Notes: a model not told the origin generated them from the sequence alone. Positions 2,527 through 44,505 are shown, numbered from the stretch's first letter. The stretch: 50,688 nucleotides of DNA from a virus (IMGVR_UViG_3300044732_000890:1-50688); one strand, 5' to 3'. Translations and numbers: made by a program.

Positions 2527-2532
2527 CAGGGG

Positions 2533-2814
2533 TTAACCCGCAGTATTCGTAGCTGCGGTGCGCTTCCGGGTCGTCATGACCTTGGTGTCATAGGTCCGAC
2601 CAACCAGCGGCTCCGCCGGATTGACGACGCCCGGATCAATCGGGGCCGCCTCGGCCTTCTGAATTTCCTTGAAGTACAAAGCGCCGACAGCCGTATCCTG
2701 CACGGCACCGGACTTGATCAGCTTCTGTGCCAGCACGTCATCACAAGCCACGAACCCAGTCTGGTTCTGCAGTTCGGGAAGCGGCTTGTAGGCCCATACC
2801 AGTGTCTCAGCCAT
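2533..2814 (-). CDS. Small hypothetical head-associated protein
   Basis: 93 aa ORF with AGGAGAG SD, between capsid and portal. Confidence 0.7.
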   Translation of the reverse strand: MAETLVWAYKPLPELQNQTGFVACDDVLAQKLIKSGAVQDTAVGALYFKEIQKAEAAPIDPGVVNPAEPLVGRTYDTKVMTTRKRTAATNTAG

Positions 2815-2834
2815 CGATCACTCTCCTGTAAGGC

Positions 2835-2859
2835 TGGCCGGGGCATAATACCCCGGCCA
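2835..2859 (-). terminator. GC-rich hairpin downstream of major capsid gene
   Basis: TGGCCGGGG / CCCCGGCCA 9-bp inverted repeat just after capsid stop; weak U-tract. Confidence 0.5.
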
Positions 2860-2873
2860 ACACATTTGCATAA

Positions 2874-6635: not shown

Positions 6636-6639
6636 AAGG

Positions 6640-7119
6640 TTAGTTGCGGGATGCGATCAGACTCAGCGGCCCCTTAGCCTTAATGGTTTCGATCGCTTTC
6701 TGGTCTTCCTTGGCGTTGGCCTGAACGGTCGCCTTGGCGCTGGTCGTGGTATTCATACTTAGCGAGCGGATCAGAGAAAGTTGCATGCTGAGTAAAGTAG
6801 CGTAGACTCGGGTGTTGGCGTTCTCGACCATCGTACCCCGCTGGTTTTCTACGACGTAACCCTCTCGCTTCAGGGTGGCCTTCACATCGCGAATGGAAAT
6901 CTCCAGCTCGATAATCTTGACCAGCATAACTAAGTCATGAGGCAGCCAATCTGACCGGGATCGGGCGGCGGTAAACGTGCGCCAAAGCTCCTTCTCCATG
7001 TCGGATTCAAACTTTACTCCCAGAGGAACTGGAATCTCCTGACCTATATCCGCAAAAGCCTGAACCGTACGCTCAAGGGTGCCAGCGCCGGGACGTTGAG
7101 GTTTGCGTTCGGTAGTCAT
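6640..7119 (-). CDS. terS: Terminase small subunit (P27-like)
   Basis: Directly upstream of terL; LKREGYVVENQRGTMVEN motif; start moved to ATG 7119 behind GGAGAA SD. Confidence 0.8.
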   Translation of the reverse strand: MTTERKPQRPGAGTLERTVQAFADIGQEIPVPLGVKFESDMEKELWRTFTAARSRSDWLPHDLVMLVKIIELEISIRDVKATLKREGYVVENQRGTMVENANTRVYATLLSMQLSLIRSLSMNTTTSAKATVQANAKEDQKAIETIKAKGPLSLIASRN

Positions 7120-8462: not shown

Positions 8463-10618
8463 TAATTGCCTCCCATCTCAAAATTCTGCGCCCGAACAGC
8501 CACGATGCAACCCGGCACATCTATGTCTCCATTCACCTCAAACAGGCGACCAATCACACCCTTGAACCACTCCTTAACTTCTGACTTACCGCTGGTAATG
8601 CGAGCCATGGATCTCAGCTGCTCCATATTCACCTTCTTCAGTTTCTCATAACCTTCAATCGGACCTTCAGGCTGACGACCCGACTGAATGCGCACTACCA
8701 AGCCTTCAAAGCCTTCAGCCCGCGTATCGTTTGCAGCCTCTTGCAAGGCATTCAACACCGCAGCCTCTCGAGCCTCTAGCGCACGTTCAGCAACAGCCTC
8801 TCGAGCCGCCTCTACGAACTCTATACCCTCACTCTCAGCCACAAGGCGGATCTTGACGGTATCCACGTAAGAAGTCTCAAGTCCACCAACAGCACCGATT
8901 ACATGATGTTGCGTTTCAAACGTCTGCCGCTCGGCGATGATCCAGTCATAGCGAGCTGAGTAACGCCGCTTCTGAAAGCGCAGGAAGCGATAGTCCCGCA
9001 AACCGTCAGCAACCTCACGACCAATGGCTGCGGTTCCTTCAACGTCACCTTTCCAAGCAGAAGCGCCGCGAGCATCGAGGTCAAACACCGACACATCACG
9101 ACCAGCTTTAGCCGTGTGCGCAATCAGCCACACCGGGTAGCCTCTCAGCACCCGACGTACGTTGGCGATCAGTCTTGATACCTCGGAGTTGTCGTTCTCG
9201 CTTTCGATTTCAAAGTTGGCTGAAGTAGTATCAAACACGATGAGTGGTCGGGCATCATATGCACCGCCCTCTACCTCATTGCTGAACTCCGTATCCTTCA
9301 ACAAAACCGGCAGAGCCTTATCCCAGAACTCAGGTCCTGCACGCCGGGAGTAGTAGACCTTAATCATGTCCCGGACTACAGCCTGATCCGGCTCAAGCAA
9401 GCCGTTTTCCCGCATAACTTTCAGAATATCCGTTATCTGTTCGGGAGCTTCGGCAAACCATAAAACACGCCGCTTGATATGTGTTTTTAGCGTTTCATCC
9501 GGGTTGATCATCAACCCACTCACCACCGTGGCGAGAGACGCTAAAATGGTTGATTTGCCGCCACCGGGTTGACCCGCAAAGGCAAACGTGCCGGTGCGTA
9601 TGAAATCGTTAATTACGTACTCTTTGGGCTGGTTTTCTACTTCATCGCTGACGTTGAATTGGCGCGGCAATTCGACATCTTCATCAGGATCCTTAACGTC
9701 AACAAACCCGTTTTCCTTAGCCCGGAAAATAACCGTTCCCATCTTCTGTGAATGTGGTTTGAGAGCTCGCCATGTGCCCTCTTGATCAACCGGGTCGTAC
9801 TTGTCAGACCGCTTGGAAAACTCATCCCAGAGCTCCCGTCCGGCATCGCCGTACCACCGCAGACCCTGACCGACCATAATCCACTCAGCACGGTCGTTGT
9901 GGTCAATTTTCTTCAGCACCTTGCGGAAATACTCACGCTCTTTGTCTACCAAGATATCTTGATAGTCGTCGTCAAACGAAACGTCTACCTTACGGCTATT
10001 TCTGTCAGGTCCGACGAGACGGTCAAAGGTGTCCGACACCTCGGTAAAGTACTCAGCCGTACCAATACGCTCGCCGGTTATGCAAACGTATCTGTTGGTG
10101 TTGAGAAACAGCTCTATTTCGCCGTCACCTCGCTTGAATTTACCGGAAAAAGTTTCACGCCCCTTTACGAAGCCGAAAATCTTAATTCCGGTACGGCTTG
10201 GCGACACTTCCGCGTATGAGCCGCACTCGTCAACGATTTCTTGCGCCCAGTCAGCGACAACCCCGTTTTCATCGACACACTTGTCGAGGTCAATTACGGC
10301 CAGCCACTGTAGCCCTGAAAGCATCAGCCCGAGACCGCGAGCACCGGGTTGAGCCTGAACCCTGACCCGTACCTGTTCTAACGTGTCCCACGTGCTGGGA
10401 TCATCTGAATGCGCCCATTCCTCGCTGAACGCACGCATGGGTGGTTTGGTCCAATGACCTTTGTTTGAAAGCATCCACGCCCAAGAGCACCACCTCTTTT
10501 CATCCTTGTACCGCTCAAATGCGACAGGGAAGTTGAATGCGGGGACAACCGGGCGGATGTCTTTTGCATCCTTGTCAACACGACGCCGGGCCTCATCAAA
10601 ATGGATAATCTCAGCCAT
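8462..10618 (-). CDS. Primase-polymerase (NrS-1-like AEP) / PriCT-2 / AAA_25 helicase fusion
   Basis: KPP..DPSTW, IDLDKC, YAEVSPSRTGIKIF, RYVCITG; PriCT-2-like DRAEWIMVGQGL...WDEFS; Walker A GQPGGGKS, Walker B IVFDT, IAHTAK, ARGASAW. Confidence 0.9.
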   Translation of the reverse strand: MAEIIHFDEARRRVDKDAKDIRPVVPAFNFPVAFERYKDEKRWCSWAWMLSNKGHWTKPPMRAFSEEWAHSDDPSTWDTLEQVRVRVQAQPGARGLGLMLSGLQWLAVIDLDKCVDENGVVADWAQEIVDECGSYAEVSPSRTGIKIFGFVKGRETFSGKFKRGDGEIELFLNTNRYVCITGERIGTAEYFTEVSDTFDRLVGPDRNSRKVDVSFDDDYQDILVDKEREYFRKVLKKIDHNDRAEWIMVGQGLRWYGDAGRELWDEFSKRSDKYDPVDQEGTWRALKPHSQKMGTVIFRAKENGFVDVKDPDEDVELPRQFNVSDEVENQPKEYVINDFIRTGTFAFAGQPGGGKSTILASLATVVSGLMINPDETLKTHIKRRVLWFAEAPEQITDILKVMRENGLLEPDQAVVRDMIKVYYSRRAGPEFWDKALPVLLKDTEFSNEVEGGAYDARPLIVFDTTSANFEIESENDNSEVSRLIANVRRVLRGYPVWLIAHTAKAGRDVSVFDLDARGASAWKGDVEGTAAIGREVADGLRDYRFLRFQKRRYSARYDWIIAERQTFETQHHVIGAVGGLETSYVDTVKIRLVAESEGIEFVEAAREAVAERALEAREAAVLNALQEAANDTRAEGFEGLVVRIQSGRQPEGPIEGYEKLKKVNMEQLRSMARITSGKSEVKEWFKGVIGRLFEVNGDIDVPGCIVAVRAQNFEMGGN

Positions 10619-13476: not shown

Positions 13477-13524
13477 ACAAAACACGGGCGGCGATGATGC
13501 CCTCGCACATAACGGAGAAATAGA

Positions 13525-13722
13525 ATGAACCGCGAATTTAGCATCACCGCTCCCAAGACCTACGCCAGCAAGGACAACGCTCGCAAGGCTGTGGCTAAGA
13601 TCGGTGCCGAAAATCTCCGTCACTTTTACATGCAGAATGACGAGGGTCGCTGGTTTCCGGTGTTCGTCGGTCAAGAAGCTCTCCAGGCTGGTATCCACTT
13701 CCACTTTAATATTGTAGGCTGA
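13525..13722 (+). CDS. Early hypothetical protein
   Basis: Behind P4, TAACGGAGA SD; followed by GGGGGAGCC/GGCTCCCCC hairpin 13729-13748. Confidence 0.75.
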   Translation: MNREFSITAPKTYASKDNARKAVAKIGAENLRHFYMQNDEGRWFPVFVGQEALQAGIHFHFNIVG

Positions 13723-13777
13723 TCAATCGGGGGAGCCTTGGCTCCCCCTCTCAAACCTCACATAAGGAACAACGCAT

Positions 13778-14611
13778 ATGTCAATCGTTAACATTTACGA
13801 CAGCATCAAGAGTCAGCATGCGCTGCGCAACGTCACTGCCCAGCCGGTTTTCCTCGGCGACGGCCGCCCCGTTCAGGGTAAAAAGGCCATTGTACTCGCC
13901 GACACCGGAGAGGCGATCTCTGTTGTTAGCGACCGCTACAAGGTCGTAAGCAACGAGGAGGTGATGAACGCTACACTGCAGGCTATTGAGACGGCTAAGT
14001 TGGACACCACCGACGCAACAGCCTCGGTTTCGTTTTCTAACAAGGGAGCGCGTACCATGGTTCGCATCATGCTTCCCGCTTACTCGGTGCTTTCCGGCAC
14101 CAACGAGACCAAAATGGAAATCGTCACGCTGAACTCCTACGATGGCGCATGGAAATATAGCAGCCGTGCAGGTGGCATTCGTCTAGCGTGCATGAACGGT
14201 CAGGTCATGGGTAAGATGATTGGTTCGTACTCGCAGTTTCACAATCAATCGCTGAACGTGCAGCGCGGAGCGGAGAATCTTGTTCGCATGATCGGTGATT
14301 TCTCTAAGTCGCAGGATTGGTTCCTTGCCATGATGAACCGTAAGGCCGATATTGACGATGTTCGCACTCTCGGCTCCAAGCTGCTTAATTTACCGACTGT
14401 GCAGTTTGACGAGAGCCGTGCTGGTAAGCGCCTGCTTTCCCTCTACGAGACGTACGCTCGTGAGATGGGCGCCAACGCTTACGCTGTGTACAACACGTTC
14501 ACGGACTTCATTACCCACCGCTCGCGTCACAAATCCGCTGTGGCCTCGAGCCGCCTGATCGATGAAAACACTTTTTCTACCAAGGTGCTTTCCTCGAATC
14601 TGTTCCACTAA
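13778..14611 (+). CDS. DUF932-family protein
   Basis: VVSDRYKVVSNEE, NSYDG, RLACMNG, AYAVYNTFTDFITH motifs. Confidence 0.8.
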   Translation: MSIVNIYDSIKSQHALRNVTAQPVFLGDGRPVQGKKAIVLADTGEAISVVSDRYKVVSNEEVMNATLQAIETAKLDTTDATASVSFSNKGARTMVRIMLPAYSVLSGTNETKMEIVTLNSYDGAWKYSSRAGGIRLACMNGQVMGKMIGSYSQFHNQSLNVQRGAENLVRMIGDFSKSQDWFLAMMNRKADIDDVRTLGSKLLNLPTVQFDESRAGKRLLSLYETYAREMGANAYAVYNTFTDFITHRSRHKSAVASSRLIDENTFSTKVLSSNLFH

Positions 14612-14668
14612 ACCCGGCGGGAGGCTTCGGCCTCCCACCCCCACTTTTAACTTGTAACGGAGAATGAA

Positions 14669-15112
14669 ATGACCAACGTAATCAAAATCACCAAGTCGGA
14701 CAAGCTTATGCCCCAGCAGCTTAAGCAAATTGACCGTATCGCAGAGCTTCTTACCAACCTGAATTGTGAATTCCGCATTCGCACCCCGGAAGGGTATTGC
14801 TTCGACAATATACTTTTGAAAAACCGGGGGAAGGGTCATTTGTCTCTCGATGACTCGGCAACCACAACCCACACTGAACAGAAGCCACGTATAAAGCGCG
14901 GTGAGATGAAGGCTTACCTCGATAATATCTTGGGCGGTATCAAGCTTGGAGAAGTTCGCGTTATCCCGATAGGTAAGTTCAATGGTCTTAACGGTACGTT
15001 TTCCAACTATGTTTCAGGTTATGCGTCAAGAATTTTCGGTAACGGTAGCTACTCAGTTTCTTGGGACAACGCAGATCGCAGCGTCTTGTTTCACCTCCAT
15101 GGAGGTCTTTAA
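14669..15112 (+). CDS. Hypothetical protein
   Basis: TAACGGAGA SD; flanked by GC hairpins. Confidence 0.7.
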   Translation: MTNVIKITKSDKLMPQQLKQIDRIAELLTNLNCEFRIRTPEGYCFDNILLKNRGKGHLSLDDSATTTHTEQKPRIKRGEMKAYLDNILGGIKLGEVRVIPIGKFNGLNGTFSNYVSGYASRIFGNGSYSVSWDNADRSVLFHLHGGL

Positions 15113-15180
15113 CAATCGAAGGGGGAGGCTTGAGCCTCCCCCATTTACCTCACAAAAGATCCACGATGACGTCGAAATAA

Positions 15181-15303
15181 ATGTCTTCAGCCCCCAACCG
15201 ACGCTTTCGGATGTCGTTCGGTAAGTTGCATAGCGAAGAAGCTAGACTAAAGATATCAGAAGCCCAACGCAAAAGATGGGCAATAAAGAAAGGTAAAGTT
15301 TGA
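15181..15303 (+). CDS. 40-aa basic peptide with NUMOD3-like DNA-binding motif (possible homing-endonuclease remnant)
   Basis: Own translation MSSAPNRRFRMSFGKLHSEEARLKISEAQRKRWAIKKGKV*; TGA overlaps PLP gene ATG; no clear SD. Confidence 0.5.
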   Translation: MSSAPNRRFRMSFGKLHSEEARLKISEAQRKRWAIKKGKV

Positions 15304-16241
15304 TGGCTCTCCCTACCCCAGCAGACCTCGACCGCCTCGCCGCCAAGCTCACGCCTTGGGAAAACCCGCAGGGTTTTTGGTTCAAGCGAGAAGACAAGTT
15401 TGCCCCGCTCGGTTACGGTGGCCCGAATGGATCAAAATTACGTCAGCTAATTCACCTCTTTGCCCGGCACAAGGGTAACGCTACGCATGTGGTGACTGGT
15501 GCGAGCATTCAGTCTCCGCAGCATAGCATGACCGCGTTCCTCGCTGCCGTGCACGGTCTCCCCTCCCTGCATGTCGTCGGTGCCACGACGCCAGAAACCA
15601 TTATGCGTCACCCCAACCCGCTCATCGCCGCCGGGTTCGGAGCCGCGTTTGACTATATCAAAGTTGGCTACAACCCGGCTTTGCAGAAGCGTGTGGCAGA
15701 GCTCAAACGGGAGATGGACGCAGCCTTCGAGGTGCCGTATGGTATCACGCTCGCTACCGACCTCTCCAGCCCTGAAGACCTCACAGCCTTTCACAGCGTT
15801 GGAGCGGCGCAAGTGGCGAACATCCCGGAGGAGGTGACCACGCTTATCGTACCGGCGGGAAGCTGCAACTCGCTAACCTCTGTCCTGCTTGGCCTCACAA
15901 CGCACAGCAACAACGTGCAGAAGGTCGTCAGCATCGGCATCGGTCCCTCCAAGATCGGCTGGGTGCGTGACCGGCTGCGCAAAATGAACGTGGACCCCGA
16001 CCGGCTCGCGTTTGAATGGAACCACAACATCTCCCTGCACGACAGCGATTATGCCAAGTACGGGGACCGTATGCCCGAGACGTTCGCCGGTATCAACTTC
16101 CATCCTACGTATGAGGGGAAGATGGTGCGGTGGATGAAGGAGCACGATATCTTCCGCGCCAACGCAGACTGTGGCTACGGCTTCTGGATCGTTGGCTCTG
16201 ATAGCAACCCAGAGGTATGTCGTCCTTTCTTTACGAATTAA
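15303..16241 (+). CDS. PLP-dependent fold-type II enzyme; likely amino-acid-thymidine decarboxylase of DNA hypermodification
   Basis: WFKRED...GGPNGSKLRQ (PLP lysine), VPAGSCNS, HPTYEGK; context with AADT and 5hmU kinase as in phages ViI and M6. Confidence 0.85.
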   Translation: MALPTPADLDRLAAKLTPWENPQGFWFKREDKFAPLGYGGPNGSKLRQLIHLFARHKGNATHVVTGASIQSPQHSMTAFLAAVHGLPSLHVVGATTPETIMRHPNPLIAAGFGAAFDYIKVGYNPALQKRVAELKREMDAAFEVPYGITLATDLSSPEDLTAFHSVGAAQVANIPEEVTTLIVPAGSCNSLTSVLLGLTTHSNNVQKVVSIGIGPSKIGWVRDRLRKMNVDPDRLAFEWNHNISLHDSDYAKYGDRMPETFAGINFHPTYEGKMVRWMKEHDIFRANADCGYGFWIVGSDSNPEVCRPFFTN

Positions 16242-16254
16242 ATTCGCACTGCCT

Positions 16255-16294
16255 AAAAATAACGCTTGACTTCCTCCCCCGGTGCGCCTAAATA
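16255..16294 (+). promoter_or_regulatory. Promoter P5 inside modification cluster
   Basis: AAAAATAACGCTTGACT (-35 16266-16271)-N17-TAAATA. Confidence 0.75.
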
Positions 16295-16337
16295 AGGTTC
16301 ATCGGGGGTTGGCCCCGCGTATAACGGAGATAGAATA

Positions 16338-16703
16338 ATGGCTCGTAACACCACTGGACATTCTGGCGAGAAGTTTGTTGAAGCTATGCTCGGTTTTCAG
16401 GGCTTCACGGCTCTCGTCGCCCCGGCGGGCAACCCTAACTGGGATATCATGGTCGCTGAAAGTGGTAAGAAAATTTCGGTAAAGGCCTCTAACTCGTCCG
16501 GTTTTGTAGCTGAGTTTTCAGCTACAGACACGTTCGATGTTCTGGCCGTAGTGGATGCATTTAATTCACGCTATCCACGTGTATGGTTCATCCCCCGCTA
16601 TATTGCGATCAAGCTCCCCACCGTAGGCGGTAAGGTGCGTATAAAAGCTTCGGATTTGAATTACGATCTTGCTCAGTTTGAAACCAACTTCGATGTCCTC
16701 TAA
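16338..16703 (+). CDS. Small PD-(D/E)XK endonuclease-like protein
   Basis: GHSGEKFV (motif I E), WDIMV (motif II D), ISVKAS (degenerate motif III). Confidence 0.6.
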   Translation: MARNTTGHSGEKFVEAMLGFQGFTALVAPAGNPNWDIMVAESGKKISVKASNSSGFVAEFSATDTFDVLAVVDAFNSRYPRVWFIPRYIAIKLPTVGGKVRIKASDLNYDLAQFETNFDVL

Positions 16704-16713
16704 CGGAGACCCC

Positions 16714-17457
16714 ATGACCACTCACTGGAAAATCCTAAACAAATATCCGTTCGAGCTGATTCCCGGCGAGGCTAAAGAGATGCCCGATGGAGATCTCTCA
16801 TACTATGAGTATCTGAACGGTCGCTGGAAGGAGACTGGCAAGAACGTGATGGCTATCGCGTGGCTGCTGCGCAACTTCCCGCAGGGTCTAAAGATTATCG
16901 AGCCGTTCGGCGGCTGTGGCGTGTTCTCGGTGGCTATTCAAGAGATAATGAAGCCAAGCTATCATCGCATCGGCGAGCTGGATGGCGACTGCTACAAACA
17001 GCTTACGCACGTTATGTCTCGCTATCCCAGCGCCGCTGTCTTCAACGATGATGCCCATCAGACCCTCGGCACCATCGCCGGGGACATCTACGTCTGCGAC
17101 TTCCCGTTCTTCACCCTGATCAAACACGAGACCGGGTATTGGGTTGAGGAGATGAAGCGTATAGTCGCCCAGCGTCCACGTGCTATCCTCATCACGGATG
17201 GAGCAAGCTGCCGTTACCACTTCACGGCTAAGGCTCTTTCCAACAGAGGCTACCCGGTCACCCCGGACCGTGAGAGCTACGCTTATTGCTTTGACCAGAT
17301 GATGTCCCGCACATACGACTATCACGTGACCGGGATGGTCTATCACGGCACATGTTTCTACATCCGAGTTGAGCCCGAGCCTCGTGAGATTGAGTTCCTG
17401 AAGCTGGAGGCTGGCTCGGGCGTCAACGGTCTGCGTCCCGACCCGAAAGGTATTTGA
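16714..17457 (+). CDS. SAM-dependent methyltransferase (amino-MTase-like) within hypermodification cluster
   Basis: IIEPFGGCGVFS (FxGxG motif I), acidic GELD (motif II), DDA, YVCDFPFF (DPPY-like motif IV); start ATG 16714 behind TAACGGAGA. Confidence 0.75.
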   Translation: MTTHWKILNKYPFELIPGEAKEMPDGDLSYYEYLNGRWKETGKNVMAIAWLLRNFPQGLKIIEPFGGCGVFSVAIQEIMKPSYHRIGELDGDCYKQLTHVMSRYPSAAVFNDDAHQTLGTIAGDIYVCDFPFFTLIKHETGYWVEEMKRIVAQRPRAILITDGASCRYHFTAKALSNRGYPVTPDRESYAYCFDQMMSRTYDYHVTGMVYHGTCFYIRVEPEPREIEFLKLEAGSGVNGLRPDPKGI

Positions 17458-17458
17458 C

Positions 17459-18460
17459 ATGACCATAGATTATCGCCCGCACCCAACCCGCGTCATGTAC
17501 TGCGAGGATCTCTACCGGGTCAACCTCGAGCATGGGATCATGCCGGGTCTCGTCTACCTCTACATGCCCGCTCTCAAACAGACCCTCAACTGGTCTGAGG
17601 AGCGTGCGCTGTGGTTCGCCTTCATCAACGGTATGACCCAGAACCCGCTCACCTCTCTGCTGATCCTTGAGCAGCTGCCGGATGTACCCGACCCCGGCGA
17701 CCCCATCACCACGTTTGACGAGTGGTTCAACCGTGAGTGGCCGCGCCTCTTCTTCGACACCGACCGGCTGAAGAACAAGCGCAACACGATATCTGCGATC
17801 AAGTCCTACGCCAAGCTCGTCGGCGAGTATGGCTCGCAGCAGCTTATGCTAGACAACCGTACCTATCCCGAGCTCTGGAACATCGTGTCCAACGGCTACT
17901 ACAGCTTCGGTCGCCTGTCCACGTTCTCGTATCTTGAGTACGTGCGGATCATGGGTCACGGATCCATTTGCGCCGACCTTATGGTCTCGGACAAAGGTGG
18001 CTCTAAATCCCACCGCAACGGTTTGCTGTTCCTGACTGGTCTTGACCATATGGTTAATGATCCCCGCGCTAAGAACGGGTTTGATGGCAACTATCAGGAC
18101 TACGACAAGATGTGCGGCTGGCTGACCGAACAGGCTAACGAGTTCCTGCGCCGGTTCACCGCTAAGCACACGTACCAGCATACCGGCTACTTTACATTTG
18201 AGTCGCAGCTATGTCAATTTAAAAATAATTTCTTTGGTCGACGTTATCCAGGATGCTACGCCGACATGGCGTTTGACCGGCTATTGAAACATGAAGACGC
18301 GTGGGGAAAGGACCGAGCGACGAAATTGATTTGGGATATCCGCACATCTCTTCCAGACTGGCTGCGTAACGAGGCTAAGAACGACAAACTGTCTATACCG
18401 GACCGGGCCAAGATCTTCCCGCGCACCGGCTTCCCGTACAGAGGAGAACATTTCCTGTGA
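17459..18460 (+). CDS. Amino-acid:DNA transferase (aGPT-Pplase2/AADT, HhH-glycosylase-like)
   Basis: ERALWFAFING, FDTDR, YYSFGRLSTFSYLEY, SHRNGL, FESQLCQFK, RRYPGCY. Confidence 0.85.
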   Translation: MTIDYRPHPTRVMYCEDLYRVNLEHGIMPGLVYLYMPALKQTLNWSEERALWFAFINGMTQNPLTSLLILEQLPDVPDPGDPITTFDEWFNREWPRLFFDTDRLKNKRNTISAIKSYAKLVGEYGSQQLMLDNRTYPELWNIVSNGYYSFGRLSTFSYLEYVRIMGHGSICADLMVSDKGGSKSHRNGLLFLTGLDHMVNDPRAKNGFDGNYQDYDKMCGWLTEQANEFLRRFTAKHTYQHTGYFTFESQLCQFKNNFFGRRYPGCYADMAFDRLLKHEDAWGKDRATKLIWDIRTSLPDWLRNEAKNDKLSIPDRAKIFPRTGFPYRGEHFL

Positions 18461-19332
18461 ACTCAACCCTCAAGCACTTCATAACCGAGCGCGAGGCCAT
18501 TCGTGTGCGCAAGGCCTCGGGTCAGCCCGCACCGTGGACAACCGACCCCATTTTACAGCAATATCGTTTCTGTAACGTCCACCGCCGCGACGACCGCGTG
18601 TCTCAGTGGCTGCTGAAGCACTATTATCCACACACCGCCAAGGGTGTGGACGCTTGGTTTCCGGCTTTGGTTGCCCGGTTCATCAACTGGCCTCCCACCC
18701 TGAAGCTCCTATTGGAGTCCGGCGTGGGGCTGGCAGCCGGGGAGGTGTGGAACCCTCATGCGTTCGAGGCGGTGATCGCTAGGCTCAAGTCTGCCGGCGA
18801 GAAGGTTTACACCGGAGCGTACATGATCTATCCGGGTAGTAGGGATGGCGACACCGCCGTGGCAAACAAGGAGCAGTTCCTCGCGCGGCAGGTCTTCGCC
18901 GGTGCGCGGGCTAACACCTCCAAGATTCGTCATGCCATCTGGCAGCTGAGCATAGAAAAGACGGTACACGAGCTCACCCAGAGCTACGGTATCTCTACTT
19001 TCATGGCAGGGCAGGTCGCCGCCGATTTGACTTACCTATACGATGCGCTGGACCTCGCCTTGGATAAGCGAACCTACGCACCTATGGGACCCGGCTCCAT
19101 CCGGGGTCTGAACCGTATACACGGCTTTAAGCTAACGCATACTTGGCAACCTCACGAATTTGTAGAGGCTTTGATGGATATTCATAGAGATATTGAGCGC
19201 GAGCTGGGAATTATGGACCTCACGCTTCACGATGTGCAAAACATTGCAGCTTGTGAATATGACAAATACCTGCGTGTGCTCAATGGTGAGGGTAAACCTC
19301 GCGCAAATTACCGACCAGAAACCGCTTTTTGA
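18457..19332 (+). CDS. 5-hydroxymethyluracil DNA kinase (aGPT-Pplase1/5HMUDK)
   Basis: FITEREAIR...PWTTDPILQQYRFCNVHRRDDRVS, FMAGQVAADL, GPGSIRGL, CEYDKYLR. Confidence 0.9.
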   Translation: MNSTLKHFITEREAIRVRKASGQPAPWTTDPILQQYRFCNVHRRDDRVSQWLLKHYYPHTAKGVDAWFPALVARFINWPPTLKLLLESGVGLAAGEVWNPHAFEAVIARLKSAGEKVYTGAYMIYPGSRDGDTAVANKEQFLARQVFAGARANTSKIRHAIWQLSIEKTVHELTQSYGISTFMAGQVAADLTYLYDALDLALDKRTYAPMGPGSIRGLNRIHGFKLTHTWQPHEFVEALMDIHRDIERELGIMDLTLHDVQNIAACEYDKYLRVLNGEGKPRANYRPETAF

Positions 19333-19333
19333 A

Positions 19334-19363
19334 CTTGACTTAACCCGTAAACCCGGCTAATCT
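19334..19363 (+). promoter_or_regulatory. Promoter P6
   Basis: CTTGACT (-35 19335-19340)-N17-TAATCT, then GATAACGGAGAA SD. Confidence 0.65.
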
Positions 19364-19389
19364 ATCGCAACAAGATAACGGAGAACTAG

Positions 19390-19989
19390 ATGCCAATCAT
19401 CATCAACCTGCGTGGAACGTCCGGCTCCGGCAAGACTACGGCCGCCCGGTTTTTCCTCAACAACTACACCAATATCGAAATGCGGCGCAGCGTGACCTCG
19501 CCCAAGGGCCGCACTTCATCTAAGATTATGGGTTATGCCATAGACGTTCCCACCTTGCAGCAGTCGCTGTATCTTGTCGGGGCGTACGGTGCCGTGTGCG
19601 GGGGCTTGGATACCATGGGCACTCAGGCCGAGCATGCCGATCTGATCCTCAAGGCCTACTCCGCCGGCAACGTGCTGTGCGAGGGTCTACTGCTGAGCTC
19701 AGTAAGCTCCGGGGCCACAGTCCCGGCGGCCATGATCGGGGCGGCCGGTAAGGAGCGTGTGATCTTTGCTTTTATGGACACTCCGCTAGACGTATGTTTG
19801 GACCGCGTGCGCGGCCGCCGAGCGGCCCGAGGCGATGATAAACCTTTCAACGAGACCAACACTCGTAAGAAGTATGAGGACACACAAGCCGCTCGTCAGC
19901 GACTTATTGACGAGGGCTGCCGTGTCGTAGACATCAGCCACCTCAACCCCGGACCCCAGCTCCTTTCTCTTTATCAGGACAACGAATAA
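19390..19989 (+). CDS. P-loop nucleotide kinase (candidate 5hm-dUMP kinase)
   Basis: IINLRGTSGSGKTT, CGGLDT, VLCEG, DTPLDVCLDRVRGRR lid. Confidence 0.8.
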   Translation: MPIIINLRGTSGSGKTTAARFFLNNYTNIEMRRSVTSPKGRTSSKIMGYAIDVPTLQQSLYLVGAYGAVCGGLDTMGTQAEHADLILKAYSAGNVLCEGLLLSSVSSGATVPAAMIGAAGKERVIFAFMDTPLDVCLDRVRGRRAARGDDKPFNETNTRKKYEDTQAARQRLIDEGCRVVDISHLNPGPQLLSLYQDNE

Positions 19990-19990
19990 C

Positions 19991-20947
19991 ATGCACTTCA
20001 TCTTCGAAAACTGCAACGACGCATGGCCGACGACGGTTCAGATGATACAAACATCTGGAGTTATCCGTAACAGTCGCAACGGTCGCGTTTCTGAATATCC
20101 GGATCCGGTTACGATAACATACGAGCGTCCGTATGAGCGGGTCTTGTTCTGCCCCTTGCGCAACATCAACCCCTTTTTGCACTTCTTTGAGCCACTTTGG
20201 ATTCTTGCCGGACGCCGGGATGTTGAGTTCCTTTCTAACATTGTTGGTCGTTTCCGCGACTATTCAGATGACGGTAAGGTATTCAACGCTGCCTATGGTC
20301 ACCGGCTTCGTTACCCTAACGATCAGATCGCCGAAGCTATTAAGCGTCTAAAGCGTAATCCGGACGATAGACAAGTCGTTCTTCAGATACGCAAGCCAGA
20401 CGACATTTACTACACGGGAAAGGACACCGCATGCAATTTGTCAATTGCGCTTAAGGTGCGTAATCGCTATTTGGACATTCACGTATTTAATCGCTCTAAC
20501 GACGTTGTTTGGGGCGGCCCTGCGGGAGGTGCAAATTACCCTCAGTTTACAACCATCCAGGAATATATTGCCGGTCACGTGGGTTGCGGTATTGGCCGGT
20601 ATCACCACACAACAGATAGTATGCACGCTTACATCGACAGCCCAGACTGGGACCGGGTAAAAGACGTTCAGGGTTATCACGACTTATACCTTTGGGACAA
20701 TGTTCCGCCATATCGTCTTTTTGATGGTTTGTTGTTCCCTGAACTGTTTGATCAAGATCTGCAGTTCTTCTTTAGCGAGCGGGCTACAACCGGATACGCC
20801 ACCTCTTACTTTAAGGATGTCGTTGGGCCGATGTGGGCCGCGTTTCAGGCGTATAAGCGTAGGGAGCAGGTAGATTTTTCCGCTATACGAGCCAGGGATT
20901 GGGCTTTTGCGGTTGAATCTTGGCTCGCGCGCAAAAATAAAGCTTGA
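19991..20947 (+). CDS. Thymidylate-synthase-family dUMP hydroxymethylase
   Basis: SRNG, NPFLHFFEPLWILAGR, YSDDG, AYGHR, DTACN (catalytic Cys), RSND, GANY (Asn = dUMP specificity), SMHAY; adjacent to 5hmU kinase. Confidence 0.88.
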   Translation: MHFIFENCNDAWPTTVQMIQTSGVIRNSRNGRVSEYPDPVTITYERPYERVLFCPLRNINPFLHFFEPLWILAGRRDVEFLSNIVGRFRDYSDDGKVFNAAYGHRLRYPNDQIAEAIKRLKRNPDDRQVVLQIRKPDDIYYTGKDTACNLSIALKVRNRYLDIHVFNRSNDVVWGGPAGGANYPQFTTIQEYIAGHVGCGIGRYHHTTDSMHAYIDSPDWDRVKDVQGYHDLYLWDNVPPYRLFDGLLFPELFDQDLQFFFSERATTGYATSYFKDVVGPMWAAFQAYKRREQVDFSAIRARDWAFAVESWLARKNKA

Positions 20948-20972
20948 CTTTCTTTTCTGGGCCGCCTATATT
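20933..20972 (+). promoter_or_regulatory. Promoter P7 overlapping the hydroxymethylase stop codon
   Basis: AAAAATAAAGCTTGACT (TGA within -35 is the stop), TATATT 20967-20972. Confidence 0.85.
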
Positions 20973-21018
20973 GGGGTTACTGAGCCGCTGATGGCTCGGC
21001 TGATAACGGAGAATTAAC

Positions 21019-21252
21019 ATGAAGACCGCCCTTCTTTCCCTCATCCTCTCGGCCCTCGCAGTTTGCGCGGCTGTTCCCCTGTTCCTGTTCAGCGCTGGTC
21101 TTGAGATGAACTCACCCGGTTCTGGCGTCGCCTTCGTTCAGGTTGCCACATGGGTTACCGTCGTACTCATCGCCCAGCCGGTTCTCGTCGTACCCTTTGT
21201 GACGATCCGTGCGCTCGTTGGTGCCGGTGCTCGCCTGATCAAGTCCAACTAA
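21019..21252 (+). CDS. Small membrane protein (2 TM)
   Basis: Two long hydrophobic stretches; TAACGGAGA SD. Confidence 0.75.
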   Translation: MKTALLSLILSALAVCAAVPLFLFSAGLEMNSPGSGVAFVQVATWVTVVLIAQPVLVVPFVTIRALVGAGARLIKSN

Positions 21253-21276
21253 CAACTCAGATAACGGAGAACTACC

Positions 21277-21672
21277 ATGAAGAAACTCACCCTCGCCGCC
21301 CTCGCCCTGCTCACCACCGTTGGCGGGGCTCACGCCGACGACTGCAACAGCCTCACGTGGCAAATCGAGTCAAACGTAGGCTCAATTCAGCGTGAAACGC
21401 GGAACATGGACTCTAACACGGAGATGATGAACGCCAGCATGTCCGCCGGTGATGTAAACTCTGCAAAGCTCTATGCGTCGATGAACAAGAACACCTCGAT
21501 CCGCTTGATCGGTCTCGTTACCGAAGGTCGCGCTCTTCTGAAGGCTGTCGACGCCATGCCCGGAAACTGCGGTGTGCCGGACGCCGTGATTACGGAAGGC
21601 GTCAAGGGTAGCTATAAGGCCGAGAAGTCTCTGAAAACTGCGATCAACGCCTACAAGAACACCTTCAACTAA
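21277..21672 (+). CDS. Putative secreted/periplasmic helical protein
   Basis: Sec signal MKKLTLAALALLTTVGGAHA|DD; two Cys. Confidence 0.75.
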   Translation: MKKLTLAALALLTTVGGAHADDCNSLTWQIESNVGSIQRETRNMDSNTEMMNASMSAGDVNSAKLYASMNKNTSIRLIGLVTEGRALLKAVDAMPGNCGVPDAVITEGVKGSYKAEKSLKTAINAYKNTFN

Positions 21673-21681
21673 AGGATAACT

Positions 21682-22188
21682 ATGCAAAACCTCCTGAACA
21701 TCTACCGCGCCGGGTCGGTGCGCCGTTATCATACGGCGCTCCACCTTCATCCTCAAGACGTAGCCTCCCACTCTTGGGGTGTGCTAGCTATCCTTATGCA
21801 TATTGAGTCGCAGCCCTCTGCGAACCTTATGCGTGCCGCCGTGTATCACGACGTCGGTGAGGTGATCACAGGCGATATCCCGGCTCCGTTTAAGTGGGAC
21901 AACCCGAAGCTTGCCAAAGCTCTGGCGGAAGCGGAAGCCAAAGCCGAAGAGAAGCTTGGTGTGTCCTACACGCTTACTGAAAAAGAGCGTGTAATTTTAA
22001 AGATTGCAGATCTTGCAGAGCTTGTTCTGCGAAATGTTCAGGAGTTTATGCTTGGCAATCGTTATGCCGCTAAGATCATTCAACGTGGCCTCGGTGCTCT
22101 TGACGAGTGCTATGGTCGGGCCGGGGAACGTGCGGATGAGTTCATCCGCGAGCTTGAAAAGTACACCCACGAGATGGAGGACAACTGA
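21682..22188 (+). CDS. HD-domain phosphohydrolase (YfbR-like 5'-deoxynucleotidase)
   Basis: VRRYH, VASHSW, YHDVGEVITGDIPAPFK, KIADLAE. Confidence 0.88.
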   Translation: MQNLLNIYRAGSVRRYHTALHLHPQDVASHSWGVLAILMHIESQPSANLMRAAVYHDVGEVITGDIPAPFKWDNPKLAKALAEAEAKAEEKLGVSYTLTEKERVILKIADLAELVLRNVQEFMLGNRYAAKIIQRGLGALDECYGRAGERADEFIRELEKYTHEMEDN

Positions 22189-22487
22189 TGTCTGAAGCCG
22201 ATAAAGTACAAGTTGGCGGCACGCACTATAAAAACGACGCGATCCCGGACCACTGGACAATCGTTTACGCTCTCGGATGGGACTATTTTGTGGCTACGAG
22301 CACCAAATATTTGTGGAGACTTGGCAAAAAGCATCCTACACTTGAAGGTCAGTTGCAAGACTTAGACAAAGCTATCCATTACTTGACCAAGAAGCGGGAA
22401 TTACTTGCTGCGGAAATCGAGGCCGAGCGTCAGTATGAAATGAGCCTCGGTGGCCCAACATCTGGCTACGTTAATCAGGACCGTTGA
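22188..22487 (+). CDS. DUF3310-family protein
   Basis: QVGGTHY, KYLWRLGKK, DLDKAIHYL. Confidence 0.85.
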   Translation: MSEADKVQVGGTHYKNDAIPDHWTIVYALGWDYFVATSTKYLWRLGKKHPTLEGQLQDLDKAIHYLTKKRELLAAEIEAERQYEMSLGGPTSGYVNQDR

Positions 22488-24325
22488 TGGCCCGCTCAAC
22501 GCTCATCGTTGATACAGAGACCTTCTCCAACGTCTTTTTGCTTGCCGGCAAGAACGTGGAGAATGGTCGACGGTTCCATTTTTGGCTACACGAAGTCGGG
22601 CCAGACCCGATCCGTGCGCTGATAAGGAACCCCGATGTGACGTTGGTGACGTTCAACGGTCGCTATTTTGATATCCCAGTGCTCGCCGCTGCAGCCAAGG
22701 GGATGACCGAGAGGGAGATCAAGGACCTCGCCAACGCCCTAATCGACGACCGCATGCCGCCATGGACCGCCGAACGCAAGTACGATCTACCCCGCGTAAC
22801 GGTTGATCACGTGGACCTTATGCAGGTTGCGCCCAGTTTTGTGGGTCTCAAAGCCTATGGTGCTCGGATGGGGATGCCGTGGCTCAAGGAGCTACCTTTC
22901 CCGCACGACGCCCAAATCCACCCGGAGCAGCTTGATGACGTTCTACACTATTGCTACAACGATCTCGACACTACTCACGAACTATTCAACCGGCTGCGCG
23001 AGCCGCTTGAGCTTCGCATCCAGATGAGCAAGGAGTATGGGGTGGACATGCGCTCCAAATCTGATACGCAGATGGCTGAGGCCGCCTTTATTAAGCGGCT
23101 GAACTTGAAGCGTGGGGAGCCCAATATCCCACCGTATGTTACGTACACCGCGCCCGATTACATTCAGTATCGTGATCCGGTTTTAACTCAGATCAAGGAG
23201 CAGATCGAAGCTCATCGCTTCCGGGTTAACCAGACTACCGGGCACGTGATCATGCCGGACTTTCTCAGTCAGCCAATCACTATCGGGCCGGGGACGTATC
23301 AAATGGGTGTGGGTGGTCTACATAGCACGCACGATAAAAGCGTATGCTATACCGCTGACGCTGAGTGGGGTCTGACTGACATTGATGCTGCGTCCTTTTA
23401 TCCCAGCATCATGGTGCATGCTAACATGATCCCGAAGAACACGGGTAAGGCTTTTCTTGACGAGTACCGGAGGATTTACGAGCGCCGCCTGACCGCTAAA
23501 CGCGTCGGGGATAAAACGACCGCTAACACACTCAAGATCTCTCTCAACGGCACCTTCGGCAAGACGGCAGACCGCTTTTCCCCACTATATAGCCCGGACC
23601 TGATGATCGCTATCACGCTCACGGGGCAGCTTGTGTTGATGTGTCTGATCGAGAGGTTCCACAACGCGGGGTTCTACGTAGCCTCCGCCAACACGGACGG
23701 TATCGCGGTCTGCTATCCCAACGCGGACCGAGGTGTATTGGAGCAGATCGTCAATGAGTTCTCAGCGGTTTCCAAGTTTGAATTTGAGTATACACCTTAC
23801 CGCGTACTGGCACTCAAAGATGTTAATAACTATATAGCTGTGACGCCGGAGCGCAAGATCAAAGCTAAGGGTTTGTACGCACCACCTGACCTGCGTAAGA
23901 ATCCATCGGCTTCGATCGTCGCCAAAGCCGTTGGTGAGTGGTTGAGCCGGGGAACCGCGTTCGAGGATACTATCCGCTCGGGCACCTTGACGGAGTTTTT
24001 GTCGGCTCGAAACGTAACCGGAGGAGCCGTTCAGGGTGAAACCTACCTTGGGAAGGTGGTTCGTTGGTATCAAAGCACCGATGCGTCACTTTCTCCCTTG
24101 ACTTATCAGAAGAATGGAAATAAGGTTCCCAAGACCGACGGGGCAAGAGCCCTTATGCTGATAACCCAAAACGAAATACCTGAGGATATAGATATTTCAT
24201 GGTACATCCGGGAGTGTGTTAGGGTAGCCAAGTTGCTAGGCTGTGCTCACTTTCTAACAACGGAACAGTTAGCCTGCGATCCCCCAAAACAAAGGAAGAT
24301 TAGGAGTAAAAAGAATGGAAATTGA
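22487..24325 (+). CDS. DNA polymerase, family B
   Basis: Exo I DTET, Exo II FNGRYFD, Exo III YCYND; polymerase DIDAASFYPSI, KISLNGTFGK, ANTDGI, DVNNY. Confidence 0.93.
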   Translation: MARSTLIVDTETFSNVFLLAGKNVENGRRFHFWLHEVGPDPIRALIRNPDVTLVTFNGRYFDIPVLAAAAKGMTEREIKDLANALIDDRMPPWTAERKYDLPRVTVDHVDLMQVAPSFVGLKAYGARMGMPWLKELPFPHDAQIHPEQLDDVLHYCYNDLDTTHELFNRLREPLELRIQMSKEYGVDMRSKSDTQMAEAAFIKRLNLKRGEPNIPPYVTYTAPDYIQYRDPVLTQIKEQIEAHRFRVNQTTGHVIMPDFLSQPITIGPGTYQMGVGGLHSTHDKSVCYTADAEWGLTDIDAASFYPSIMVHANMIPKNTGKAFLDEYRRIYERRLTAKRVGDKTTANTLKISLNGTFGKTADRFSPLYSPDLMIAITLTGQLVLMCLIERFHNAGFYVASANTDGIAVCYPNADRGVLEQIVNEFSAVSKFEFEYTPYRVLALKDVNNYIAVTPERKIKAKGLYAPPDLRKNPSASIVAKAVGEWLSRGTAFEDTIRSGTLTEFLSARNVTGGAVQGETYLGKVVRWYQSTDASLSPLTYQKNGNKVPKTDGARALMLITQNEIPEDIDISWYIRECVRVAKLLGCAHFLTTEQLACDPPKQRKIRSKKNGN

Positions 24326-27011: not shown

Positions 27012-27575
27012 ATGACTATCCGCACCGTCAAAGATGCTGACTCAATACATAAGCTCGTAGGTCTGTATGCCGCGCTTCAGTCAGCGCGAGTTTCGTCTGG
27101 ATACTTTGTAGAGGACCGGGTAGCTGATGTTTTATCTACGTTATACACCGGGACGTTAGTCAAGCGGTTCAAGATTAAATCTCCTAATTCAGATAGAAAA
27201 ACGAAACAGTTCGATGTAGCAATTCGTAACGGTAACTCTCTAGATGTGTTTGAAATTAAAACATACGCGGGAGATTCATTTACCTATTCTGAAGATACTG
27301 TGTTCAAGTCCATTTACACCGACTTGGAAGTTCTAAAATCCGCAAATCCCGGTGTTGATGTAAAGCTATACTATGTGTTTTCAGATATTGATAGTGAGTT
27401 TGCGATACGTATGAAGAAAGAAAAAGTTGTCGGTGTGATATCGTTTGCCGATATAGGTCTGAATGCAAACGAACTTATCATCGAAGGTATGATGCTAAAA
27501 TTCAATAAGAACCTCGCTGACCTGTCCATTTCTGATAATCTCAAGAAAGCTATAACTGATGAATTCTCAGCGTAA
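27012..27575 (+). CDS. PD-(D/E)XK restriction-endonuclease-like protein (AT-rich)
   Basis: GYFVE, FDVAI, VFEIKT spacing fits E...(P)D...ExK; overlaps MTase gene. Confidence 0.6.
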   Translation: MTIRTVKDADSIHKLVGLYAALQSARVSSGYFVEDRVADVLSTLYTGTLVKRFKIKSPNSDRKTKQFDVAIRNGNSLDVFEIKTYAGDSFTYSEDTVFKSIYTDLEVLKSANPGVDVKLYYVFSDIDSEFAIRMKKEKVVGVISFADIGLNANELIIEGMMLKFNKNLADLSISDNLKKAITDEFSA

Positions 27576-28104
27576 ATATAAGGTGATATACGCCGACCCG
27601 CCGTGGAACTTTGAAACGTACTCTGAAAAGGGACAAGTCAAAACCCCTCACAGACATTACGGTTGCATGACCGAAGCCGATATCGGAAAACTACCGATAT
27701 CAGATATTGCTGACAAGGACTGCGCACTATTTATGTGGATAATAGACAGTCATCTACACCACGCGATGAAAATTATTGAGCAGTGGGGTTTTACTTATAA
27801 AACTGTCGCGTTTGTCTGGGCTAAAACCACCAAGCATAACAAATGGCATTTTGGGCAAGGCTACTGGACCCGTAAAAACCCAGAAATATGTTTGATGGCC
27901 ACTAGAGGTTCTCCTAAAAAAGCTTCTTGGGCTGTACGTCAGCTTGTAGTTGCTCCGGTTAGGGAGCATTCTCGTAAGCCTGACGAAGTCCGGGAGGGTA
28001 TTGTTCAGCTGATGGGCGATGTACCTAGGATTGAACTGTTTGCAAGGACTACAACTCCCGGTTGGGACGTATACGGCAACGAAACAGATAAATTTAAACC
28101 ATGA
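27559..28104 (+). CDS. MT-A70-family adenine methyltransferase
   Basis: YKVIYADPPW, LFMW, WGFTYKT, HSRKP, RIELFAR, GWDVYGNE. Confidence 0.93.
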   Translation: MNSQRKYKVIYADPPWNFETYSEKGQVKTPHRHYGCMTEADIGKLPISDIADKDCALFMWIIDSHLHHAMKIIEQWGFTYKTVAFVWAKTTKHNKWHFGQGYWTRKNPEICLMATRGSPKKASWAVRQLVVAPVREHSRKPDEVREGIVQLMGDVPRIELFARTTTPGWDVYGNETDKFKP

Positions 28105-40382: not shown

Positions 40383-40515
40383 GTAAATCACCACCCTGCC
40401 GCCGCCGTTGAGGCCCACCACGCGAGGCAGGCCACAAGGATGAATGTCAACGGAATCTTTATGAATCCGAAGCCCCGGCCGAGGCAATACGCAAATCGAG
40501 TAACGGAAGTTTTCC

Positions 40516-43701: not shown

Positions 43702-43704
43702 TCT

Positions 43705-43770: not shown

Positions 43771-43785
43771 TTCACCGCCTCTCCC

Positions 43786-44460: not shown

Positions 44461-44505
44461 GTTTCACTCCTGAAGGCTCGTTGCGGTTTTGCTCACCATT
44501 TTTCG

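Follow-up and report, generated by a model that had tools for sequence, protein, structure and literature searches.

A putative thymidine hypermodification operon in an uncultured phage

We analysed the IMG/VR virus entry IMGVR_UViG_3300044732_000890, a whole record of 50,688 bp (hereafter the window) that is known only as a metagenomic contig and is estimated to be 94% complete. It carries a gene cluster that we read as a likely operon for thymidine hypermodification based on 5-hydroxymethyl-2'-deoxyuridine (5-hmdU), with one extra enzyme, here named MT247. Thymidine hypermodifications guard phage DNA against nucleases, restriction enzymes among them, and they are a source of DNA-labelling enzymes. 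Open reading frame (ORF) calls delimited seven co-oriented genes on the + strand at 15303-20947, with gaps of -4 to 96 bases between them. The first (15303-16241) encodes a fold-type II pyridoxal phosphate (PLP) enzyme homologous to gp226 of phage ViI (Vi01); its ORF opens at a TTG at 15300, and the ATG at 15303 is the likely start. It is followed by an ORF of 121 amino acids (aa) without family match, possibly a small PD-(D/E)xK nuclease (16338-16703), and by MT247 (16714-17457), a 247-aa protein with a predicted class I S-adenosylmethionine (SAM)-methyltransferase fold, whose start was set from homologues. Then come an amino acid:DNA transferase (AADT) of aGPT-Pplase clade 2 (17459-18460), the helical protein HMUDK_hel of aGPT-Pplase clade 1 (18457-19332), a P-loop kinase that is likely the 5-hmdU DNA kinase (5-HMUDK; 19390-19989), and a predicted dUMP hydroxymethylase of the thymidylate synthase (TS) superfamily (19991-20947). 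An initial annotation of this DNA had listed six of these genes, namely a PLP enzyme, a methyltransferase, an AADT, a 5hmU DNA kinase, a P-loop kinase and a TS homologue, all co-oriented on the + strand over the same interval. Both the six genes and their coordinates were right, and the 121-aa ORF had been left out. When the cluster was searched at the DNA level against 50,697 cultured-phage records, zero matches were obtained.

The TS homologue groups with phage dUMP hydroxymethylases

The TS homologue matched PF00303 with 59.2 bits (E 4.5e-16) and phrog_5131 with E 1e-84. By tblastn, its top full-length matches (98% coverage, 36-40% identity) were in PaMx11/M6-like Pseudomonas phages and in Bordetella phage CN1, and the next ones in SPO1-like, SP10, ViI-like and PhiW-14 phages. 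These phages belong to groups with 5-hmdU-derived DNA. The protein was aligned in a set of 11 sequences made up of the window, two related contigs, five phage dUMP enzymes, two dCMP hydroxymethylases and E. coli ThyA, in which the catalytic Cys148 as well as Arg168, Ser169 and Asp171 were invariant. At the position that specifies dUMP, the window protein has an Asn aligned with N177 of ThyA and with an Asn present in all the dUMP enzymes, and the dCMP hydroxymethylases T4 gp42 and that of a Bacteroides phage have an Asp. Moreover, a C-terminal extension of about 100 aa is common to the window, PaMx11, SPO1-like and SP10 enzymes and absent from ThyA, and the C-terminal folate-closing segment of ThyA is missing from the window protein. 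The latter is 39% identical to PaMx11 gp51 and 18% identical to E. coli ThyA. In a 16-row tree, a modest test given its single ThyA and its long branches, the window protein grouped with PaMx11 gp51 (support 83/91), and both fell within a cluster of 13 rows, all phage hydroxymethylases (80/80), that was separate from ThyA and from the dCMP hydroxymethylases. Against PDB sequences, the top match was the CMP hydroxymethylase MilA (4e-23), the best ThyA came at 1e-8, and the NCBIfam ThyA equivalog scores were all far under cut-off.

By alignment, tree and database placement, the TS homologue thus belongs with the dUMP hydroxymethylases and would supply 5-hmdU. The TS-family hydroxymethylase with a dUMP-specifying Asn that the initial annotation had seen at this place is therefore borne out, both by the aligned Asn and by the subfamily tree, in which phage dUMP hydroxymethylases are the nearest relatives. 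An ordinary thymidylate synthase, in a phage whose thymine is not replaced, could be read from the Pfam Thymidylat_synt match and from the Asn, which ThyA also has, but the identities, the tree grouping (with its one ThyA), the two C-terminal differences, the MilA match and the equivalog scores, as well as the 5-hmdU kinase homologue encoded next to the gene, make a canonical ThyA very unlikely.

Kinase, transferase and PLP enzyme homologues

The P-loop kinase is 34% identical (E 1e-21) to PaMx11 gp49, one of the 5-hmdU DNA kinases tabulated in Lee 2021 (PMC8989533, Table 1), and 24% identical to ViI gp243 (E 9e-4). Its match to PF18748 is weak (E 1e-3, 19.1 bits for a cut-off of 27). From these homologies, the P-loop protein is likely the catalytic 5-hmdU DNA kinase. 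The initial annotation had given the name 5hmU DNA kinase to the gene just upstream, and this label does not hold: the gene encodes the helical HMUDK_hel/aGPT-Pplase1 protein, which is not a kinase domain and represents a paralogue class of AADT. HMUDK_hel matched PF18723 over profile positions 5-277 of 281 (E 1.7e-44, 152.7 bits for a cut-off of 25) and is 29% identical to PaMx11 gp50 (E 4e-26). Table 3 of Lee 2018 places ViI gp160 and the C-terminal half of SP10 gp186 in the aG/PT-PPlase1 class. As for phage M6, its clade 1 counterpart is labelled differently in Lee 2018 and in Lee 2021 (PMC8989533), and the lysate reconstitution described in the latter reports that the kinase gp54 and the transferase gp51 are enough and that gp55 is dispensable.

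The AADT matched PF18724 with 46.3 bits (cut-off 26.2), so that the profile search for aGPT-Pplase1 and 2 suggested in the initial annotation was positive for both classes. Its nearest characterised relative is the serine:DNA transferase gp247 of ViI (27% identity, E 2e-20). BLASTP gave no match to the glycine-specific PaMx11 gp46, and phmmer against PDB sequences gave nothing meaningful. We also modelled the protein with AlphaFold2 (pLDDT 84.2). The sole confident PDB matches found by Foldseek were the structures of PaMx11 gp46/PUGT (8z2n and 8z2m; prob 1.00, TM 0.53-0.63), and the next ones had prob <= 0.13. A motif E248-S249-x-x-C252 is invariant in 14 relatives, and its spacing equals that of E243/T244/C247 of gp46, the two being matched by motif spacing rather than by structural superposition. 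In gp46, Glu243 and Thr244 are described as metal ligands and Cys247 as the nucleophile (PMC11472151). The AADT therefore appears to have the metal-binding Glu-Ser and the nucleophilic Cys of clade 2 aGPT-Pplases. The substrates named for AADTs in Lee 2021 (PMC8989533) and in the 2026 diaminopropane paper are glycine, serine, putrescine and diaminopropane. Among cultured phages, the best AADT matches (about 32% identity) were in 27 phages of Mycobacterium smegmatis with genomes of about 70 kb, where the matching gene is gene 3, mostly annotated as hypothetical (e.g., MN234171.1 1765-2730).

Between the PLP enzyme and ViI gp226, identity is 34% (E 8e-56), and K46 of the former aligns with K92 of the latter. 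Lee 2021 (PMC8989533) reports gp226 as a proven decarboxylase of O-serinyl-thymidine and proposes K92 as the PLP Schiff-base lysine. K46 was invariant in an alignment of 6 sequences, including that of a ViI-like phage. The enzyme matched phrog_3650 (E 9e-78) and, more weakly, PF00291 (E 3.3e-6, 27.1 bits for a cut-off of 35), and its only NCBIfam matches were to the ACC deaminase/D-cysteine desulfhydrase family, far under cut-offs. This is consistent with a gp226-type PLP decarboxylase with its Schiff-base lysine. No radical SAM enzyme (PF04055) was found in the 50,688-bp record, whose estimated 94% completeness leaves room for one in the missing part, and the control search was positive in 14/14 genomes. 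This makes the M6 route less likely, since there a radical SAM isomerase of the M6 gp53 type has to act on the N-linked glycine first. Altogether, with the placement of the TS homologue and with homologues of proven kinase, AADT and PLP enzymes, the view that this is a 5-hmdU-based thymidine hypermodification set of the SP10, PhiW-14, ViI, M6 and PaMx11 kind is well founded.

MT247 has a predicted methyltransferase fold

MT247 had no match in Pfam, PHROG or NCBIfam, and tblastn against the 50,697 phage records gave zero matches. Metagenomes contain 28 close homologues of MT247, and Pfam recognises no domain in any of them. The conserved motifs are EPFGGCGVFS, ELD, DAH and (D/E)FPFF, and FGGCG and ELD are kept in 23 sequences. 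The AlphaFold2 model, built from 23 sequences, reached a pLDDT of 93.5 and a pTM of 0.90. Its top PDB neighbours by Foldseek were Trm1, PH1948/METTL5, RlmCD, TYW2, RsmD, TrmN6 and M.BseCI (prob 1.00, TMq 0.44-0.57), with TYW2 at ranks 10 and 47. At least 500 PDB entries matched at E <= 0.001, and those listed are methylases. MT247 is therefore predicted to adopt a class I SAM-methyltransferase fold, in which motif I is rich in glycine and motif II is acidic.

When 1.84 billion representatives were searched with the profile, 432 members of the family were retrieved at E <= 1e-3, of which 29 at E <= 1e-30. We scanned 82 of the members, and 8/82 matched RrnaAD (E <= 0.01) and 2/82 weakly matched TRM5-TYW2. 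A word-based search for longer, fused relatives found none, and the exhaustive profile search found two. The first fusion, P0158 (609 aa), has an ADDT domain (E 6.5e-12) alongside the MT247-like one; in the second, P0046 (348 aa), the partner is a P-loop nucleotide kinase 3 domain, of which only a part is present. Locus searches with the single distant members P0042 and P0049 returned no loci.

MT247 is like the methylases of exocyclic amines (Trm1, KsgA/Erm RrnaAD, RsmD and METTL5/PH1948) in its predicted Rossmann fold, its FGGxG motif I and the acidic end of its strand 2 (ELD). It differs from them by the lack of a significant sequence match, by a variable, non-canonical motif IV, and by its context in a DNA base-modification operon.

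MT247 is encoded close to AADT in most loci found with its profile

With the MT247 profile, 23 viral loci were retrieved. In 20/23, an AADT gene lies at most 2.3 kb downstream on the same strand, and in two of these 20 (L024 and L025) a PLP gene stands between MT247 and AADT. As for the remaining 3/23, two contigs end right after MT247, and the third is L008, whose record (G001) encodes a 720-aa PLP-AADT fusion about 8.5 kb from MT247. This fusion occupies one open frame (G001:C1:21439-23226), in which a gp226-like PLP domain is joined to an AADT domain. Lee 2021 (PMC8989533) mentions that hypermodification genes can be fused to one another, and among its cases are PLP-containing genes joined to a 5-HMUDK. 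In the window, the MT247 stop lies one base before the AADT start. On the basis of gene order, the fusions and the presence of a separate MT-A70 methylase gene in the same genome, we regard MT247 as a candidate member of the hypermodification pathway.

Several loci carry further genes at this place. In L004, MT247 is present as two paralogues in tandem (identity to the window protein 45% and 61%), which lie directly upstream of AADT (775-2321) and are preceded by a 111-aa ORF with a weak N6_Mtase match. In L008, a 2-oxoglutarate (2OG)-Fe(II) oxygenase gene (6441-6995; PF13640, E 1.7e-14) adjoins MT247. In L022, another 2OG-Fe(II) oxygenase, judged by eye from its HxD...H motif, lies between AADT and the kinase (about 2444-3050). 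The two oxygenases are possible further tailoring enzymes.

Proposed pathway

We propose that the cluster is a 5-hmdU thymidine hypermodification operon of PaMx11-like and ViI-like parts, to which one enzyme has been added. Taken as a whole, this proposal has in our view a slightly better than even chance of being right; the homologies are observed, and from them we infer the chemistry. In the first step, before replication, the TS homologue would hydroxymethylate dUMP. Host kinases, since none were found encoded, would raise the product to 5-hmdUTP, and an HD-domain hydrolase encoded downstream would probably trim the dT nucleotide pool. The phage family B DNA polymerase (PolB) would then use 5-hmdU instead of T. 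Once in DNA, 5-hmdU would be phosphorylated by the P-loop kinase to 5-phosphomethyl-2'-deoxyuridine (5-PmdU). In the fourth step, Cys252 of the AADT would attack C6, the phosphate would be expelled, and an amino compound would be attached. We have high confidence in this core of four steps because of the placement of the dUMP hydroxymethylase, the homology of the kinase to gp49, the PF18724 match, PUGT fold and E-S-x-x-C motif of the AADT, and the PaMx11-like gene order, all of which point to it.

Since the PLP enzyme needs a free alpha-amine and no radical SAM isomerase is present, the attached compound would most likely be linked by its side chain, as serine is in ViI. The gp226-like PLP enzyme would then strip the carboxylate in a fifth step, leaving a primary amine like that of 5-(2-aminoethoxy)methyl-2'-deoxyuridine (5-NeOmdU). 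This serine and decarboxylation route is suggested by the affinities to gp226 and gp247 and by the missing isomerase, and we consider its chances evenly balanced. In the sixth step, MT247 would N-methylate that amine, giving an N-methylated base not yet described. We propose N-methylation because the best structural neighbours of MT247 and the RrnaAD matches of its family are methylases of exocyclic amines; the step is tentative, and we hold it somewhat less probable than even.

The initial annotation had called the set complete, which overstates it: family searches of the record found no dNMP/thymidylate kinase, dCMP deaminase or dUTPase, and only the HD hydrolase lies downstream. The corresponding steps would thus be left to the host or to unrecognised genes. 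The HD gene (21682-22188, + strand) encodes a YfbR-like deoxynucleotide hydrolase (PF12917, E 2.5e-16, plus HD_3 and HD matches). It matches PaMx11 gp52 by position, an HD gene following the TS gene in PaMx11 too, and it would probably remove dTMP/dTTP. The PolB gene (22484-24325, + strand) is directly downstream of the cluster and was recognised by phrog_1252 (E 3.3e-159), with weak Pfam matches. If the pathway operates as proposed, the virion DNA would be T-substituted and restriction-resistant, as the initial annotation had also suggested.

The broader claim would be that MT247 represents a new tailoring class, a SAM-dependent N-methyltransferase acting on the amino arm of a hypermodified thymidine in duplex DNA; as it stands, we regard this claim as doubtful, if far from negligible. 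If it were true, the product would be a mono-, di- or trimethylated 5-(2-aminoethoxy)methyl-dU, the trimethylated form being a choline-like ether, and the route from serine through ethanolamine to choline would parallel phospholipid head-group synthesis. It would mean a new natural DNA base together with a new enzyme whose substrate is an amine tethered within duplex DNA. Methylation of the appended amine would change the charge and bulk of the base, which bears on the host defences escaped, and the 432 representative clusters would make methylated thymine hypermodifications widespread in uncultured phages. The added value of the locus is a candidate fifth tailoring chemistry, carried by a methylase-fold family that is not picked up by domain databases and that gene order and a natural fusion tie to AADT.

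Alternative roles for MT247

Several observations weigh against N-methylation of a decarboxylated arm. MT247 is carried by only 7/80 of the best AADT relatives and is thus an accessory gene. On the AADT tree, its presence changes at least 6 times (19 rows with it, 42 without and 21 not callable, the rows with MT247 having been chosen partly for carrying it). Such a patchy scatter is also what would be expected of a free-standing phage DNA methylase. Moreover, a complete genome of 54.8 kb (G002) has MT247 without any PLP gene, so MT247 needs no decarboxylated amine there. The MT247 profile found no significant methylase match among PDB sequences (best KsgA, E 0.26). Canonical motif IV is (D/N/S)PP(Y/F). 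In MT247, the corresponding (D/E)FPFF is non-canonical, its proline is lost in distant members, and its D-x-P-x-F lined up with N-L-P-Y of KsgA in the top HMM alignment, which was itself not significant. As for the fusions, motif IV of P0158 is degenerate, and P0046 is without the N-terminus of the kinase and may be a gene-call artefact. On the side of the substrate, the AADT is only 27% identical to ViI gp247, which makes serine a guess, and the PLP enzyme scores under its Pfam cut-off.

A first alternative is that MT247 is an independent nucleic-acid base methylase, for example a KsgA/Erm-type enzyme acting on adenine N6 of DNA or RNA, which would add a second layer of protection, and the pathway would end in a thymine derivative already described, for example 5-NeOmdU. 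The structural neighbours, among them M.BseCI, which methylates adenine in DNA, and numerous methylases of RNA bases, are compatible with this, as are the 8/82 RrnaAD matches, the patchy distribution (7/80 loci), the genome with MT247 and no PLP gene, and L008, where MT247 lies beside a 2OG-Fe(II) oxygenase and away from AADT. However, the site just upstream of AADT recurs in at least 6 AADT clades, and an AADT was present in every MT247-bearing record with enough sequence to check. Family members are also fused to an ADDT domain and to a piece of nucleotide kinase, the 247-aa protein matches no DNA methylase family of Pfam, and the phage already encodes an MT-A70 methylase. We consider an independent base methylase unlikely.

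A second alternative is that MT247 uses SAM otherwise, either for a TYW2-like transfer of a 3-amino-3-carboxypropyl (acp) group, which would provide a second substrate for the PLP decarboxylase, or for O-methylation of the carboxylate or of 5-hmdU. TYW2 is among the top Foldseek matches, TRM5-TYW2 was weakly matched by two of the scanned members, and 2OG-Fe(II) oxygenases adjoin MT247 or AADT in L008 and L022. But the TYW2 matches are no better than those of ordinary methylases, the sequence does not separate methyl from acp transfer, and a logic of acp transfer followed by decarboxylation fails in the complete genome with MT247 and without PLP gene. Such other uses of SAM are quite improbable. 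N-methylation of the amino arm is the role we prefer for MT247, at the tentative level given above.

Comparison with known systems

In the 5-NeOmdU pathway of ViI, as described in Lee 2018 and Lee 2021 (PMC8989533), the 5-HMUDKs are gp67 and gp243, the serine:DNA transferase is gp247, the PLP decarboxylase gp226 and the aGPT-Pplase1 gp160. The window has the same enzyme classes, with the 34% and 27% identities of its PLP enzyme and AADT to gp226 and gp247, and neither phage has a radical SAM enzyme. In contrast, ViI is a myovirus of 157 kb with scattered genes, while the window holds a compact operon in a siphovirus-type genome of 50 kb with PolB. Two kinases are found in ViI and one in the window, whose kinase, HMUDK_hel and hydroxymethylase are closer to those of PaMx11. 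MT247 is absent from ViI and had no tblastn match in any cultured phage record.

The PaMx11 cluster for 5-acetylaminomethyl-2'-deoxyuridine (5-AcNmdU), gp46-gp52, encodes a glycine:DNA transferase, an FAD (flavin adenine dinucleotide) lyase, an acetyltransferase, the 5-HMUDK, gp50, the dUMP hydroxymethylase and an HD protein. Extended to gp55, it forms a nearly equal operon, with AADT, tailoring genes, kinase, HMUDK_hel, hydroxymethylase, HD and DNA polymerase. The kinase, gp50 homologue and hydroxymethylase of the window are 34%, 29% and 39% identical to their PaMx11 counterparts, and the fold of its AADT matches gp46/PUGT. The two differ in tailoring, which relies on the FAD lyase and the acetyltransferase in PaMx11 and on the PLP enzyme and MT247 in the window. 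They differ also in that the window AADT has no BLASTP similarity to gp46 and that in the window, as in L003, HMUDK_hel comes before the kinase.

A survey of IMG/VR v2 and GOV2.0 (Lee 2021, PMC8989533) reports contigs with 5-HMUDK, clade 2 aGPT-Pplase and PLP enzymes and a nearby dUMP hydroxymethylase, and the window fits this population. The tailoring classes named in the text of that paper are radical SAM, PLP, flavin lyase and acetyltransferase enzymes as well as amidoligase and glutaminotransferase matches, with no methyltransferase; the word methyltransferase occurs four times in it, never for a cluster gene. The tailoring enzymes given in the 2026 diaminopropane paper are radical SAM isomerases, PLP decarboxylases, flavin lyases and acetyltransferases. 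Our full-text search of the literature found no paper linking a methyltransferase to thymidine hypermodification, Figure 2 and the supplements of Lee 2021 being outside this search and possibly holding such contigs unlabelled. Since MT247 has no Pfam match, a Pfam-based survey would leave it unlabelled. A relation to Carin-5 was considered and dismissed, the Carin-5 paper being concerned, in what it describes, with sugar-modified thymidine.

The cluster is common among uncultured PolB-encoding phages

A search with an alignment of this AADT clade found at least 570 relatives in IMG/VR viral contigs, of which 80 loci were kept for examination. AADT, kinase, HMUDK_hel and hydroxymethylase occur together in 67/80, and 61 of those 67 have the same PolB downstream. 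A PLP gene is within reach in 47/80 and an HD gene in 49/80. The kinase precedes HMUDK_hel in 66/67, and the order is inverted in the window and in its closest relative, L003. The cluster is therefore standard equipment of a large group of uncultured tailed phages that encode PolB. The initial annotation had taken the pairing with PolB as a sign of a mosaic lineage; cluster and PolB together (61/80 loci) are the rule instead. The core pathway is already known and common in viromes, and the cluster itself is one more member.

The 121-aa ORF and other genes of the record

The 121-aa ORF between the PLP and MT247 genes had no Pfam, PHROG or NCBIfam match and is specific to this record, with no tblastn match in L001-L025 nor in 80 further loci. 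ESM Atlas gave leads only, a PD-(D/E)XK feature score of 0.91 and a TM of 0.84 to a PDDEXK_5-bearing cluster, which is under our naming bar. The ORF may be a small selfish nuclease, akin to the homing endonucleases at similar slots in relatives. In related phages, the cargo at similar positions varies, with homing endonucleases in some and a MazG-like ORF in others. The cluster gap of L002 is occupied by a homing endonuclease (8993-9640; phrog_655, E 1.3e-49), L003 has a 254-aa ORF that looks GIY-YIG endonuclease-like by eye (about 8731-9500), and L009 and L010 have an ORF of about 100 aa, MazG-like by eye, between the PLP and MT247 genes. A 215-aa ORF of L002 was tried as an MT247 counterpart and rejected as a homing endonuclease.

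Elsewhere, the record encodes an HK97-family capsid protein, a portal, TerS/TerL with an adjoining HNH gene, a tape measure protein, a Sak4-like protein, and a primase with PriCT_2 and AAA_25 domains. The HK97-type capsid, the HNH packaging gene and the PolB of the initial annotation were thus all recovered, as was a primase-helicase, whose PriCT_2 and AAA_25 domains are the features that bear on the NrS-1-like label given there. No tRNA gene was found in the record, and promoter and terminator scans of 13500-22600 gave results no better than those of shuffles. Upstream of the cluster lies a DUF932 gene (13778-14611, + strand; PF06067, E 8.2e-21), and DUF932 genes are likewise upstream in L003 and L020. 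An MT-A70 DNA adenine methylase gene (27559-28104, + strand; PF05063, E 8.9e-33), flanked by a NERD-like ORF and by a YqaJ/PD-(D/E)xK exonuclease-like gene, indicates that the phage has a second, conventional DNA modification. Finally, G+C content is 58-62% at the ends of the record (1-4000 and 40000-50688), where the structural genes lie, and 51-55% in its middle, where the replication and modification genes lie.

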